NCBI GenBank assembly: GCA_963665115.1
Contig: OY762007.1
Location: 6,816,001 to 6,880,000, forward strand
Direction: 5' to 3'
DNA from: an uncultured Rivularia sp.
Lineage (GTDB): Bacteria; Cyanobacteriota; Cyanobacteriia; Cyanobacteriales; Nostocaceae
Length of the DNA stretch: 64,000 nucleotides
Below, one piece after another: positions 38,214-45,467 of this stretch. The translations under genes and the position numbers were made by a program. How positions within the stretch are numbered: the stretch's first letter is position 1; every line of letters begins with the position of its first letter. The notes beneath the pieces were generated by a model. It was not told where the DNA came from, searched no databases, and saw only the letters and a list, made by a program, of their open reading frames with translations.

Positions 38214-38334
38214 AAATTTATTATTATACTCGTACTGAAGAGTCAAAAAGTTCGTAGTAAGGGGTTAAGCCCTTCTTCTCAGAGGACTAAAGTCCTTACT
38301 ACAAACCGATGAAAATTAATAAAATTTGATATTT

Positions 38335-39579
38335 ATGGAATACAACCCTCAACTCTACCAAGAAATTACCAACCGCATCACCGCAAGCCCTCAACAACGC
38401 ATCACTTTCGCCGAATACATGGACTTAGCGCTATATCATCCAGAATACGGTTACTATTCTCAAAAAGCCGCATTAGGAAAAGAAGGCGATTTTTTTACTT
38501 CCGTCCATCTCGGTGCTGACATAGGTGAAATGTTGGCAATTCAGTTTATGGAAATGTGGGAGATATTAGGTCAGCCAGAAACTTTTAATTTAATAGAAAT
38601 GGGTGCGGGGCAAGGATATTTAGCAGCAGATATTCTTAACTATATTAAACAAAAATATCCAGATTTATTCAAAGCTTTAAAATATACAATTATCGAAAAA
38701 TCACCAGGATTAAAACAACTTCAACAACAACGTTTAAAAGAATTTGAAGTTACCTGGTGCAACTTAGAAGAAATACCAAACAATTCCGTCACCGGATGCT
38801 TTTTCTCAAATGAATTAGTAGACGCTTTCCCCGTGCATCAATTCAAGATAGAAAACGGAGAATTGCGCGAGATTTACGTTACTAATGTAGAAAATTCTAC
38901 CCCCTCTACCCCCTCTTCCCCCTCTCCCCCCTCTCCCCCCTCTCCCCCCTCTCCCCCCTCTCCCCCCTCTCCCCCCTCTCCCCCCTCTAATCTTTTCACC
39001 GAAATTACCGACAAACCTTCAACACCAAAACTGCTTGATTACTTAGACTCCTTAGAAATAGACATTAATCAATATGCCGATGGATATCGTAGCGAGATTA
39101 ATTTAGCAGCTTTGGAATGGTTAAGTGTAATAGCTCACCGTTTGCAGCGCGGCTATGTGCTAACAATTGACTATGGATATATTAAAAACCGTTATTACAA
39201 TCCCAGACGCGATCGAGGCAGCTTACAGTGCTACACTCAACATCATCGCCATAACGACCCGTATATTAACATTGGACAGCAAGATATCACCGCTCATGTT
39301 GACTTTACAGCCTTAGAAAAAAATGGCGATCGCCTCGGTTTGCACAAAATTGGTTTAACGCAACAAGGATTATTTTTAATGGCTTTAGGATTAGGGGAGC
39401 GTGTAGCATCTCTATCTCAATCCAAGCAACCTTTATCTACCATATTGCAACGTCGCGACTCATTACATCAACTTTTAGATCCAATGGGGCTTGGTGGTTT
39501 CCACGTTTTAGTTCAAGCCAAAGGATTAAAAGAAACAGAAAAATCTCAGCAACTCAAAGGTTTTATTCAGCCATATTAG
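38335..39579 (+). CDS. SAM-dependent methyltransferase, MidA/NDUFAF7 (DUF185) family
   Basis: ITFAEYM.LALYHP.YGYY, GDFFTS, EMGAG.G.LA, SNELVDAFP, IDYG and QDITAHVDF motifs. Confidence 0.92.
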   Translation: MEYNPQLYQEITNRITASPQQRITFAEYMDLALYHPEYGYYSQKAALGKEGDFFTSVHLGADIGEMLAIQFMEMWEILGQPETFNLIEMGAGQGYLAADILNYIKQKYPDLFKALKYTIIEKSPGLKQLQQQRLKEFEVTWCNLEEIPNNSVTGCFFSNELVDAFPVHQFKIENGELREIYVTNVENSTPSTPSSPSPPSPPSPPSPPSPPSPPSPPSNLFTEITDKPSTPKLLDYLDSLEIDINQYADGYRSEINLAALEWLSVIAHRLQRGYVLTIDYGYIKNRYYNPRRDRGSLQCYTQHHRHNDPYINIGQQDITAHVDFTALEKNGDRLGLHKIGLTQQGLFLMALGLGERVASLSQSKQPLSTILQRRDSLHQLLDPMGLGGFHVLVQAKGLKETEKSQQLKGFIQPY

Positions 39580-41008: not shown

Positions 41009-41038
41009 GTAGGTTGGGTTGAGGAACGAAACCCAACA
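41009..41038 (+). repeat. GTAG-REP, short-loop form
   Basis: GTAG-GTTGGGTT-GAGGAACG-AAACCCAAC; opposite orientation to the array units downstream. Confidence 0.85.
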
Positions 41039-41141
41039 TAATCTAGGAAACTCAACGAAATAATTCAACTCAAAATAAATATCAAAATATCCAATAAAAC
41101 AACACACCTTATTTTAAAAATGTATGTTGGGTAATTTCATC

Positions 41142-41230
41142 TGAAATCAAAATATTGATGTTGGGTTACGACGCAATCGTGCATAAGAAGGTTAATTATT
41201 AAATCTTGTCGTGCGTCTAACCCAACCTAC
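41142..41230 (-). repeat. Cassette-boundary hairpin unit A
   Basis: TGAAATCAAAATA..GATGTTGGGTTA-C-GACGCAAT-(AT-rich)-GTGCGTC-TAACCCAAC-CTAC. Confidence 0.9.
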
Positions 41231-41327
41231 CACTATTTACACAGTATAAAAAGTAACCATGAGGTTGATGATTGCGATTTAGCTATGTAATGATTTAAAC
41301 AATCAGATTTAATAAAAAGTTTATATC

Positions 41328-41687
41328 ATGAAACCGTTGCAAATAATTGTTGGACTATTGGCTGGCCATTTTATAGGGAAAGCCATGTGGGCTGCACTTT
41401 TTTGGCTTCCAGGAATGGTAGTTGCAGCTAAAAATCTTAGTGGGGGTGGTAGTTTACATTTAGGGTGGTTTTCGTTGGCATATATTGCAGCTGTAGCAAT
41501 ATCAATTGTGTTGTGGATTGTTGGTAATCTTTGTGTTTATGCATTGCTGCCTCGTGCTGGTGTCACTTCGGCAATTTTGTCAGCCGTAGTAGGAATTTAC
41601 ATTGCAGTTTTATCACTACCCTGCCTATTATTCGATTGGGATGGAGGCTTATGTCAAACCATAATTTGGACAGGTTGGTGGTTCTAA
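41328..41687 (+). CDS. Hypothetical membrane protein (cassette cargo 1)
   Basis: 119-aa, 3-4 TM segments, Trp-rich C-terminus; lies between units A and B. Confidence 0.7.
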   Translation: MKPLQIIVGLLAGHFIGKAMWAALFWLPGMVVAAKNLSGGGSLHLGWFSLAYIAAVAISIVLWIVGNLCVYALLPRAGVTSAILSAVVGIYIAVLSLPCLLFDWDGGLCQTIIWTGWWF

Positions 41688-41728
41688 TTAGCTTTAAAAA
41701 CACGCTAAAAAATAGTTTACGTTTCCTT

Positions 41729-41815
41729 TGAAATCAAAATATCAATGTTGGGTTACGACGCAATGTTTATTAATTTATCAATCATTTAGAATTCCGTGCG
41801 TCTAACCCAACCTAC
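41729..41815 (-). repeat. Cassette-boundary hairpin unit B
   Basis: Same arms and leader as unit A, different loop. Confidence 0.9.
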
Positions 41816-41841
41816 AATTTGTGCCAGTTGATTGATTTGCT

Positions 41842-42789
41842 ATGGATGAATATGAGGAAATGCTCAGGTTGAATGCTTTGGAGGAAGAAATTATTAAACG
41901 TTACGAAGCTGGGGAACGAAATTTTGCTGGTATTGATTTGAGATTTATCAATATTAGCTATTCCTGTTTTATGGATATCAATTTCAGTGAAGCCAATTTG
42001 CAAGTGTCTTCCTTCCACAACATTTATTTGGTTAACATCAACTTCACTAATGCCAATTTGAAGGGATCTCTTTTCTCCGGCTATTTGATTGGTTGCAATT
42101 TGAGTAACACCAATCTCCGGGAAGTTGATTTTGAAGGTACCAATTTGACTGGGGTTGATTTGACTGGTGCTGACCTGAGTGGTGCTGATTTGAGTAGAGC
42201 TAAATTGATTAGGACTAATTTGAGCAATGCCAATTTGACTGGTGCCAAGATTACTCCAAGTACTATCTTCTGCAACACTATTATGCCAGACGGAAGAATT
42301 GAGAATAAGTCTTCCAAGGTCATTGATTCCCAAGAATTGCTCAGGCGTTATGCCGAAGGGGAGAAAGATTTCCGAAATATTTTCTTGGATAGAGTTGACT
42401 TGAGTGGGGTTAACTTGCAATCGATTAATTTGTGCGGCGCTCATTTGAGCCATGTCAATTTGCAAGGTGCTTTCTTTGAGGGAGAGATATCGGCTCACTT
42501 CATCTGTTGTGATATGAGAGATGCTCGGTTGATTTGTACCAGTCCTGACTACGGGAATCAACCGAGTTTTACTTGTTGTGACTTGCGAAGAGTTCAAATG
42601 GGTGGGGGTATAGACACTTTCGGTGCTATCGGCAACAACTTCCAAGGTTCCAATGCCCATTTCCGTTGTGATGACGGTGATATCTTTATTCACAACAGCA
42701 CTTGGTTTAATGGAGAGTTCATTGCTGGACCTGTTTGGTTGATGGAATATTGGGGAAATATTAGAGAGATTGACCCCAGTGACTTTTGA
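41842..42789 (+). CDS. Pentapeptide-repeat protein with two tandem modules (cassette cargo 2)
   Basis: RYEAGERNFAGIDL and RYAEGEKDFRNIFL module starts, A(D/N)L repeats, TIMPDG linker. Confidence 0.88.
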   Translation: MDEYEEMLRLNALEEEIIKRYEAGERNFAGIDLRFINISYSCFMDINFSEANLQVSSFHNIYLVNINFTNANLKGSLFSGYLIGCNLSNTNLREVDFEGTNLTGVDLTGADLSGADLSRAKLIRTNLSNANLTGAKITPSTIFCNTIMPDGRIENKSSKVIDSQELLRRYAEGEKDFRNIFLDRVDLSGVNLQSINLCGAHLSHVNLQGAFFEGEISAHFICCDMRDARLICTSPDYGNQPSFTCCDLRRVQMGGGIDTFGAIGNNFQGSNAHFRCDDGDIFIHNSTWFNGEFIAGPVWLMEYWGNIREIDPSDF

Positions 42790-42836
42790 TGAATTTGTAG
42801 AACTTTTATCCGCCATCAAAGTTGAGCAATTTCGTA

Positions 42837-43207
42837 TGAAATCAAAATACCGATGTTGGGTTACGACGCAATTTAAATTAATTGATTAATAATTAAATCT
42901 TGTCGTGCGTCTAACCCAACCTACCACTACTCTTGTGGGATGGGCATCCCTGCCCGTCCGAATGTACTGTCAAAACCCTGATCTTGGGTTACAACGCAAT
43001 TTTAATTAATTGATTAATAATTAAATCTTGTCGTGCGTCTAACCCAACCTACCACTAATTATTTCAATATTCCTTCCCGGATTCCTATATTATGATGGTG
43101 CGTCACGGTATTTTCGAGATTGTAATTTAAAGATTAAACATATTCGTACCGTGACAGCACCCTACGACTATAATCCATGAAATCAAAAGACTAATGTTGG
43201 GTTACGA
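42837..43207 (-). repeat. Stack of hairpin units C (42837-42924), D (~42970-43052), variant E (43097-43165), truncated F (43178-43207), plus a GTGG-REP (42935-42959)
   Basis: All are co-oriented with A/B. C, D and E end in CTAC; F lacks the right arm. No ORF lies between them. Confidence 0.88.
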
Positions 43208-43231: not shown

Positions 43232-45467
43232 CTAAAGTTTCGGCAAAATCTCCGGCAACAACTGCCCTGGAACTTTAGACAAAGCTACGTTTTGTCCCTG
43301 AATTCCTAATTCCGAATGGAAGCCGCGAATTGTTTTGACTATATAACTAATTGTATTTTGATGGTTTTCTGATTCTTGATTCATTCCTGTTAGGGCTTGT
43401 AGATGATTATCTAATGCTTTTTCTAAATATTGGGAACGAATTTTTTTATCTTCTGTAAAAAATTTGTCTGTGCCTATTTGATAGTTTGCTAAACCTAAAT
43501 TATTATGAGTTGCGAACAAATCAAAGCTCAAAGATACACCTGTAAGTGAATGTGCTAAAGCTAAGGCTTCGTCGTAAGCTTCAATACACATTTTTAAATA
43601 ATTTAATTTCTCGTGTTTATCTGTATCTGGTTGATTTGCTAAGTGCCAATAAGCTGTACCCAAGTTATTTTGAGTTGCAGCACAAGCTGTGGGAACGTTG
43701 GCTGGTGTCCGATATTTTAAGGCTTCATTGTAAGCATTAATAGCTAATTGTAAGTATTCTACTTCTCGGTCGTATTGTGCAAGGTTCCAGTAAGCTGTAC
43801 CAATATTGTTTTGAATCATGCCGTATTTCAACGGTTCTTGATCGGAATTATAGTAAACTACTGCGTGTTCGTAAGCTACTACCGCTTGCTTTAAATTGAT
43901 TACGGGCTGATTGTATTGCGCTAAATGCCAGTAAGCCGTACCTAAATTATTTTGGCAAGCTGCATACTTTAATGGTTCCATTTCGGCAGTACGAAAACGT
44001 AGAGCTTCGCTATATGCTGTTACTGCATTTTGCCAGTTTTGATCTGGATTATTAAAACGAGCTAAATCGCCGTAAGCCGTGCCCAAATTATTTTGCACTC
44101 TGGCATAAGTTTCCGAATGGGTTTCTGGTGAAATTAATTTCAGGGCTAATTCGTAAAATTCAATACCTTGCTCGATATAAGCTGGCCCCCTCTTGAGAAT
44201 TGGGTGGAGTGCGGTACAGCATCCAATAAAGCGTACCTAAATCGTTCAATACGTCTGGCACGGAGGCTGAAGAATCATCATAAGAAATTGATTCCTGATA
44301 TGCCAGAATCGCCACCATCAAGTTTTCTAAAGTTGATTGTCCTTCTTCGATGCGGACGCGATATATATTTCCTAAACGATAATAAGCAGCCCCAATATCT
44401 TTTTCGTCAGCTTGTTGGGAATGTAAATCCTCAATTTCTTGCAGGATTTGCTGTACTTGTTCGTTTTGAAGAGGTGAGTCAACTATTGTGGTGCTAATCG
44501 TTGTTAATATTAGCTCGGTTAACTCTTTGCTAATGTGAGGCAAATCCGAGGCTGACGGAACAAGATTGCTCGAACTACTTTTTTGTAGCAGTTCGGTATT
44601 TTCCTCCTGCTGCATTCCAGGAGTAAATATTTCTAATTGCGATAGCGGATTTTCTTCTTTTACAGCAAAAGATTCCGTTGCTGATTCTAAGCGGTTTTCC
44701 GATCGTTGAGATGGTGGAAACTCAAAATCTTCCTCAAAATCTAAATCACTAGGAGGCGTTGTTAACTCTTCATTAATAGTGGGTTGTTCCACAGAGTCTA
44801 AATCTAAACTTCTCTGAACGGCAAAACGTCGTGCTGCACTTCTATTGGGACTTGTTGGAGTTGGTTCTCCAGCAAACAAAAATACACCCGTTCGAGAACG
44901 CCAGAACTGTGGCGCAGACTGTTGAATTGCACGCAACCACGGACGTGGAACCCATAGTAACAAGCTTGAATCTAAAAATCTGCTATCTGCTTGACTTGAC
45001 AGTTGCTGTTCTGTCAAACGCAGGTAATGTAAAAATAAACGTTGTATGGCAACAGGTTGTCTAGTTAACTGTTCCGTACCCACCATTTGAAATGACGGAA
45101 TAGGCAAAGCCTTACCCGGCACATCTTTGGAACCACCAACAACTGGCGGAGGATAATTACTTAACCATTGATTTATTTGCGCTATGGGATTTGGATCGTT
45201 TAAATTCAACCGTAAAGTGACTAATCGCGGATAAGCTGGTGTACTAGCTTCAGATTGCGTATCAATTGGCTGATACAGAACCTGTCCTACCGGATATGCC
45301 AAAGTTGAATGCAAACGAGCCGCTACCTGATTTCTCAGGTTTAAATCATCACATACCGCTATGAAAATTTGTCTTCGCAAGTTGAGTCCCAAAGCAAGTT
45401 TCAAGCGGTGATATACTTGCCGGTTCCAACTAGAATTATTAGAGTTTACAGTATCGTTTAAGCTCAT
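43232..45467 (-). CDS. Tetratricopeptide-repeat protein (+1 frameshift at G-run ~44188)
   Basis: Repeated (A..QNNLGTAYW.LA) TPR units; deleting one G gives continuous EGPAYIEQGIEFYELAL. Confidence 0.85.

Follow-up and report, generated by a model that had tools for sequence, protein, structure and literature searches.

The window analysed here is a stretch of 64,000 nucleotides from an uncultured Rivularia sp. (G000:C1:6816001-6880000, where G000 is the genome under study and other G numbers denote compared genomes). Between a dehydrogenase gene and a tetratricopeptide repeat (TPR) protein gene it carries an array of bulged hairpin repeats, units A to F, which enclose two genes (Table 1). The repeats are repetitive extragenic palindromes (REPs) tagged with GTAG, and they could have an integron-like role in gene shuffling, likely aided by a hairpin-cutting transposase. 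An earlier sequence-only reading had described co-oriented units with a variant (E) and a half unit (F), and the positions of arms and leaders bear this out. The right arm TGCGTCTAACCCAACCTAC is found exactly at 41212, 41797, 42906 and 43034, always on the + strand, and none of 100 shuffled versions of the window gave four such matches. The leaders begin at 41142, 41729, 42837 and 43178, the one of unit D being degenerate, and their spacer is 6 nt long rather than 5 nt as first given. The two enclosed genes are both on the + strand, as had been described, with 41 and 47 nt between a gene end and the next unit and 26 nt between unit B and the start of gene 2. The oppositely oriented short REP reported at 41009 was also found; together with unit A it makes up one REP dimer, or bacterial interspersed mosaic element (BIME), which is the basic repeat of the sister arrays described below.

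On folding, units A-E form single-stranded DNA (ssDNA) hairpins with z values from -3.3 to -6.1. The single unpaired C that had been assigned to units A-D is present in A, B and C (C on the top strand, G on the bottom strand), while D has an additional mismatch. The GTGG-type hairpin between C and D had been overlooked.

Table 1. Features of the array and its borders, in window coordinates
Feature	Position	Strand	Remarks
Left flanking core gene, NAD-binding (3-hydroxyisobutyrate-type) dehydrogenase, 291 aa	40109..40984	+	Pfam PF03446 and PF14833; syntenic anchor in congeners
Short GTAG REP, 29 nt; left half of the REP dimer (BIME) with unit A	41009..41037	+	
BIME spacer, with the TGAAATCAAAA leader at its end (41142)	41038..41159	.	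~80-86% identity to sister-array spacers
Unit A: long bulged GTAG REP, AT-rich loop, GTAG on minus strand	41160..41230	-	
Cargo gene 1: 119-aa hydrophobic orphan protein	41328..41687	+	Putative membrane location, from composition
Unit B: leader (41729-41746) and long GTAG REP (41747-41815)	41729..41815	-	
Cargo gene 2: 315-aa pentapeptide-repeat protein	41842..42789	+	PF00805; N-terminal type labelled 'ELLERY..GER.F' (label coined in this analysis)
Unit C: leader and long GTAG REP (42855-42924)	42837..42924	-	
GTGG-tagged short hairpin, separate repeat family, between C and D	42934..42960	+	50 copies in genome
Unit D: degenerate leader and long GTAG REP (42983-43052)	42966..43052	-	Loop 97% identical to C
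Unit E: long GTAG REP, second arm type (GGTG..)	43097..43165	-	
Unit F: only leader and left arm	43178..43207	.	
Right flanking core gene: 3' part of TPR-protein gene	43232..44098	-	744 aa in G013 and G226, split in G000

The protein of cargo gene 1 has two homologue clusters in the protein database and no match in Pfam or NCBIfam, and a search of the ESM Atlas for a function of this presumed membrane protein returned best scores of 0.89, all to unnamed clusters. We took a 335-aa antisense open reading frame (ORF) that overlaps gene 2 to be a presumed shadow frame. Within the array, promoters and terminators showed no excess over shuffles (4 against 7.9 and 3 against 1.6). A contig of sequencing run X1 covers 41206-42921 with no differences; this run is possibly the source sample, so the contig supports the assembly only.

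The unit is not confined to this locus: the hairpins belong to a family with 315 copies in the genome (214 long, 84 short and 17 intermediate) and two arm types. Their identification as GTAG REPs in the sequence-only reading held, and the family has a cognate REP-associated tyrosine transposase (RAYT). GTAG lies at the 5' foot of an imperfect hairpin and the copies are often inverted dimers. Long REPs measure ~70 nt in all, with a hypervariable loop of 28-41 nt that is 77% AT, and the bulge is a G in 186 of the 212 distinct long copies. Stem columns covary through compensatory changes, several of them beyond all 500 shuffles (in one column, 201 paired where the shuffles reached 136 at most), figures which are inflated by subfamily relatedness. 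According to the ORF calls of this analysis, 212 of 214 long copies are intergenic, and these prefer convergent gene ends (68/212, or 32%, against 17% of gaps). Every one of the seven genomes of the genus has the strict long-loop pattern, at 8-117 copies; of 194 further genomes in the family, 8 have it, at 1-7 copies. GTAG-tagged palindromes, often dimers, are reportedly found in filamentous cyanobacteria, according to Elhai's work of 2008 on small dispersed repeats of Nostoc. A structured RNA family was ruled out as an identity of the array, which had no match in Rfam at E<=1.

The REP sites are not spread evenly, since 40 neighbouring pairs lie within 2.2 kb of each other where 11.5 are expected (maximum 23 in 2000 simulations). 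The strict leader subfamily has ten copies in the genome, of which four flank the RAYT gene, three are in the window and two in a third cargo array. Pentapeptide genes of the ELLERY type have a family REP within 80 nt downstream in 9/28 cases, against 143/6370 for all genes; three of the nine prompted the test, and without them the count is 6/25. A family-wide test of this linkage gives no support, with three loci in 2 of 121 genomes and none with a family REP. Among 14 loci outside the genus, the Nostoc record L211 has RAYT, REP dimer and an ELLERY-type pentapeptide gene together and L220 has an ELLERY-type gene beside short REPs, the other 12 having none among the ORFs shown.

An enzyme gene elsewhere in the genome, flanked by the same hairpins, had been anticipated and was found. 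The sister array G000:C1:785826-788959, located from a weak Y1-search match inside it, holds a gene for a 180-aa RAYT (G000:C1:786400-786942), which is bordered by the same units and REP subfamily, as well as two pentapeptide genes, both with a short-plus-long REP dimer behind them. The RAYT scores 202.9 bits on NF047646 (cut-off 80) and matches Escherichia coli TnpA-REP (4ER8) at E 2e-46, with H59, H61 and Y130 aligned to the catalytic residues. A RAYT is present at the same locus, the dusA-Mg-chelatase array, in 14 of 27 genomes. In G001, G012, G022 and G226 the hairpins are kept and the RAYT is absent, G019 has an internal deletion in the gene, and the array of G003 shows a rearrangement. 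Among named organisms, the closest carriers of the G000-type RAYT are labelled Rivularia, Calothrix, Plectonema and Richelia, which points to a heterocyst-forming cyanobacterium of the Rivularia type. Three further RAYT-like Y1 genes are found in the genome, at G000:C1:4654828-4655277, 2099562-2100227 and 2547527-2547970. RAYT paralogues with 44-66% identity are also seen in congeners, namely G003 (L177), G007 (L186, L190, L191) and G001 (L184); several are flanked by their own REP arm types, and one is at a locus that lacks it in G000. Within the sister array, a 71-nt slot between two REP feet (G000:C1:787189-787259) has what appear to be the first codons of a deleted gene.

The interval between the dehydrogenase and the TPR gene was read in 19 alleles; G015 and G006, with the TPR anchor only, were excluded, and G014, also with one anchor, was included. 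Neither REP nor cargo is present in G012, G008 and G020, and REPs without cargo in G009, G019, G017 and G010. Decayed pentapeptide genes or remnants are seen in G001, G005, G011 and G018, and in G003, G021, G007, G014 and G226 the first short REP is preceded by other pentapeptide genes. The membrane module is found in G000, G013, G002 and G226, that is in 3 of 26 congeners and always at this locus. It stands before gene 2 in G000 and behind a pentapeptide gene in G013, the latter sharing the 5' end of gene 2. A reordering of the same two cassettes between G000 and G013 was rejected, the G013 pentapeptide gene being only 40% identical overall. The closest homologue of gene 2 (68%) lies in G022 inside the dusA-Mg-chelatase array, at the position that RAYT has in other species. 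From these alleles and from the homologue in another array it follows that the cargo is neither vertically inherited nor fixed to one place. The comparison of this locus that the sequence-only reading had proposed thus came out in its favour: modules of gene plus unit are gained, lost and placed differently, with boundaries at hairpins.

Two other features of this interval were seen in relatives. Between two direct E-type REPs, G017, G011 and G226 (L055, L062, L064) have an AT-rich segment of 359-395 nt that is absent from G000; the copies are 75-79% alike and ~80% AT where measured, with a longest ORF of 21-59 aa, and they may represent a non-coding module. In the interval of G001 (L049), a long REP and a short one are separated by a 15-nt slot that resembles the leader of a gene-2-type module, as if a gene had been excised between the two REP feet.

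Filled and empty alleles were also found at other REP-bracketed loci. A PIN-domain gene pair lies in G000 between two REPs with identical loops; across 26 loci, six congeners have a single REP with the same flanks, the pair is present in five, and 15 are not comparable owing to other downstream genes. At 7211 kb, G003 has the same three REPs and two genes and both G001 and G007 have one REP (three orthologous loci, two paralogous matches having been dropped). The 154-kb locus is empty in G003, holds another gene in G007 and the same genes in G013, has an extra gene between repeated REP triplets in G016, and has other genes with no REP detected in G001. The flanks of the bracketed loci at 4568 kb and 2470 kb were not found in five relatives; partial matches were seen, and for the 4568-kb locus there was no comparable site among relatives. 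Toxin-antitoxin (TA)-like and orphan genes are among the cargo at sister loci. At G000:C1:4568845-4570877, three small genes including a Phd/YefM antitoxin gene lie between two long REPs whose loops are 95% identical.

Some of these modules are more alike between lineages than the genomes around them. Between G000 and G004 the RAYT gene is 95.4% and the PIN gene 95.1% identical, values that none of 73 random orthologues attains (maximum 91.9%, median 84.8). The membrane gene of G000 and G013 is 98.1% identical; none of 20 flanking genes exceeds 93.5%, and just 1 of 109 random genes reaches 98% or more. In 100-bp tiles the high identity begins and ends at REPs, sharply for the PIN pair and less so for the membrane gene. 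The RAYT tree rejects the clade of G000, G007 and G016 (p-AU 0.000165), which the neighbouring dusA recovers (support 80/92). As judged from sequence comparison, the RAYT, the PIN pair and the membrane gene therefore represent REP-bounded transfer tracts that end at hairpins, for which we claim no donor.

Junctions of local duplications fall 0-9 nt 5' of GTAG in 12 of 30 cases where about 2.3 are expected (p 9e-7, some junctions not being independent), and some of those in G013, G004 and G024 fuse fragments of neighbouring core genes to a REP foot. Back-joints seen among contigs (42924->41843 in runs X6 and X12, 42789->41005 in X12) fit repeats mapping to another copy equally well and were not counted. 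In run X4, a close strain, neither the membrane gene nor the 5' half of gene 2 is covered, and there was no joining contig; this was not counted either. At G000:C1:7956647 (minus-strand count) a REP foot directly adjoins a short repeated motif, which is met again at a distance of 721-939 nt and may resemble a CRISPR repeat.

By every sequence test run, the array is a member of the REP/BIME-RAYT kind, integron-like in outcome and not an integron. The family of REPs, the RAYT in the sister array, the variable alleles, the REP-bounded tracts and the junctions piled up 5' of GTAG are all observed. We consider it probable that the array consists of group-2-type GTAG REP/BIME hairpins of a REP-RAYT system and that small genes are exchanged as hairpin-bounded blocks, likely through RAYT cutting and rejoining of ssDNA plus recombination between repeats. 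On this reading REP/BIME arrays act as gene-exchange points, likely by the same two routes. The system has no integrase, attI site or shared promoter. The E. coli TnpA-REP needs GTAG and the bulge, cuts ssDNA 5' or 3' of the REP and also at a distance, and rejoins it (PMC8266576, PMC3333891); its distant cleavage and its recombination were observed in vitro (PMC3333891). The G000 RAYT would bind the folded REP on one strand and cut near the GTAG foot and at a second, more distant site. It could then excise the stretch between two same-strand REPs, or draw in neighbouring DNA, and rejoin it at another REP. The GTAG foot points outward on each strand of each dimer, which places any gene flanked by two dimers between direct REPs of the same strand. 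Once bracketed, a gene might be deleted, amplified or accepted from incoming DNA by RecA-type recombination between the direct REPs. RAYT cutting would thus create and place modules, and direct-repeat recombination would also delete and spread them.

Several observations weigh against this reading. The RAYT has a Q at the position of R104, which in E. coli TnpA-REP is named as a GTAG contact (PMC6006769). Arrays are still present in species without this RAYT (80 copies in G021, 43 in G226). The junctions, including that of the RAYT deletion in G019, have no common dinucleotide and no C|T signature, and their enrichment is also obtainable from REP movement alone. No cleavage product was seen, and no circle among the assembled contigs. 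The loops of the window pairs A/B (0.51) and B/C (0.65) are not unusually alike. No REP precedes the first-slot pentapeptide genes of G003, G007, G021 and G226. At 19 of 26 loci a hexapeptide-transferase gene is retained between direct REPs (it is absent at five, and two are cut off) while the REPs vary, and an RF-domain gene is kept in four of five cases. Counts across congeners are not independent, these being related. Scattered copies, which had been named beforehand as speaking against a cassette array, are in part what was found: 119 of the 190 REP clusters are single, and bracketed genes are in some cases retained while their REPs vary. Gene shuffling by hairpin-bounded modules is accordingly borne out as gain, loss and different placement in congeners and not as a strict cassette system.

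Recombination alone is a serious rival because empty sites keep one REP, and exactly one, and because arrays persist in species without this RAYT. The RAYT would then merely spread REPs locally, and homologous recombination or slippage between chance direct REPs would delete, duplicate or swap the block between them, incoming DNA included, the enzyme not moving genes directly. Concerted evolution, as expected from such recombination, predicts alike loops in direct pairs, and around genes the loops exceed the 99th percentile of the background in 8 of 16 direct REP pairs and in none of 8 inverted ones; the pairs of the window do not belong to these eight. The lack of a cleavage signature fits as well. 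However, some deletions and duplications in G013, G004 and G024 run from a REP foot to a point within an unrelated neighbouring gene where no repeat is present, the homology within a unit is just ~70-220 bp with a variable loop, and the hairpins remaining in the RAYT-less alleles of G001, G012, G022 and G226 also count against it. We regard this explanation as the less likely one. A tentative extension of the main reading, which we find possible but not probable, is that a domesticated RAYT runs an integrase-free cassette system, in which single-stranded circles would form between same-strand REPs, insert at other arrays and capture neighbouring DNA, with a genus-wide pool of pentapeptide, TA-like and orphan cassettes. 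A duplication of the REP on insertion was considered and rejected: it fits the 8/16 direct pairs and fails for the window's own, and the hexapeptide-transferase gene has alike loops without mobility.

The cassette look might also be a coincidence, with REPs gathering at gene 3' ends in tolerant, variable intergenic regions, perhaps acting on mRNA, and gene turnover being unrelated. The preference for convergent ends, the many single clusters and the stable bracketed genes agree with this, but clean single-REP empty sites, transfer tracts ending at REPs, the excess of close site pairs and the REPs following ELLERY genes do not, and at the PIN-gene, 7211-kb and RAYT loci the coincidence is largely refuted; we judge it very unlikely overall. 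The array resembles a cassette cluster derived from an integron (CALIN), in which the integron integrase, IntI, recombines attC sites: each repeat comes with one gene, the genes are co-oriented, the hairpin is bulged and its loop variable, and sister loci hold TA-like and orphan cargo. The attC core order is RYYYAAC ... GTTRRRY. The units run GTTGGGT ... ACCCAAC on both strands, GTT first, so that the reversed order which the sequence-only reading had pointed out is correct. The link to integrons that it had drawn found no support: TIGR02249 has 0 matches in the genome, none of the 12 Phage_integrase matches is near the window or the RAYT arrays, and no tyrosine recombinase is near either main array. 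A CALIN needs no IntI, and the lack of one is not decisive by itself; the units have a GTAG foot, flank a RAYT and have no Rfam match. A CALIN origin is extremely improbable.

The preferred reading, exchange of hairpin-bounded blocks by RAYT and recombination, has its closest precedent in the REPtron of E. coli K-12 (TnpA-REP/RAYT group 2, subclass 2.2; PDB 4ER8; PMC3333891, PMC8266576, PMC6006769). Both have closely homologous RAYTs with the catalytic residues, the GTAG foot, a bulged stem and inverted dimers, a single RAYT locus and variable BIME numbers, and RAYT-less alleles that keep their hairpins, as in E. coli B2 strains. Unlike those of E. coli, the Rivularia REPs have the long AT-rich hypervariable loop and are partnered by a short REP. 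Whole genes, which vary from species to species, occupy several arrays distant from the RAYT, the RAYT module has passed from lineage to lineage without a change of locus, and one pentapeptide family is repeatedly tied to dimers, also beside the Nostoc RAYT of L211. Gene sequestration or capture by BIMEs was proposed in 2012, and precise loss of tnpA-REP leaving BIMEs has been reported (PMC3333891); capture of flanking genes or fragments has been seen in few cases (PMC3333891, PMC2817692). The REPIN/RAYT systems of Pseudomonas and Nostoc punctiforme share the doublet unit, tandem clusters with flanking DNA and cyanobacterial occurrence (PMC3116915, PMC3337134), and the uptake of useful DNA by REPINs has been raised as a possibility (PMC3116915). 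In the present case the doublets are heterodimers of a short and a long bulged REP, and gene cargo is seen. The GTAG-12/15/16 families (PMC3733652) are likewise GTAG-tagged palindromes of filamentous cyanobacteria, often dimers; the long-loop form is abundant in this genus only. Integron arrays and CALINs (PMC8618304) are alike in outcome: small genes stand in tandem, each with a site of the folded-ssDNA type, slots can be empty, the genes include orphan and TA-like ones, and exchange is genus-wide. They differ in IntI, attI and the attC core order, all lacking here, where the candidate enzyme is an HUH nuclease, the arrays are short (1-3 genes) and at many loci, and most repeats are solitary.

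New relative to known work are the long hypervariable loop, the multi-gene arrays away from RAYT, the matched filled and empty alleles and the REP-bounded transfer tracts. Our literature search, in sources available in part, gave no description of REP-delimited multi-gene arrays in cyanobacteria, and supplements (PMC3333891 Fig. S7, PMC3733652 files) may hold cases. It is an open question what leads bacteria to retain RAYT genes in single copy alongside hundreds of REPs (PMC5581495, PMC3333891, PMC8266576). If a cassette system run by the RAYT existed, it would be a host benefit keeping both in genomes, and if the RAYT moves modules, an HUH nuclease would be doing the integron's job. If it is not the mover, REP arrays would still be hot spots of accessory-gene turnover in these cyanobacteria. 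With several matched filled and empty loci in one genus and a defined RAYT and hairpins, gene capture by BIMEs becomes directly testable.

Two minor observations concern genes beside the array. At 44185-44190 of the window an extra base in a C run splits the TPR gene into ORFs of 435 and 288 aa; it is absent in all five relatives compared, and is either an assembly slip or a recent frameshift. On the other side, a methyltransferase ORF (38326-39579) has an in-frame insert of Pro/Ser heptamer repeats and encodes 417 aa, against 395 aa in G226.

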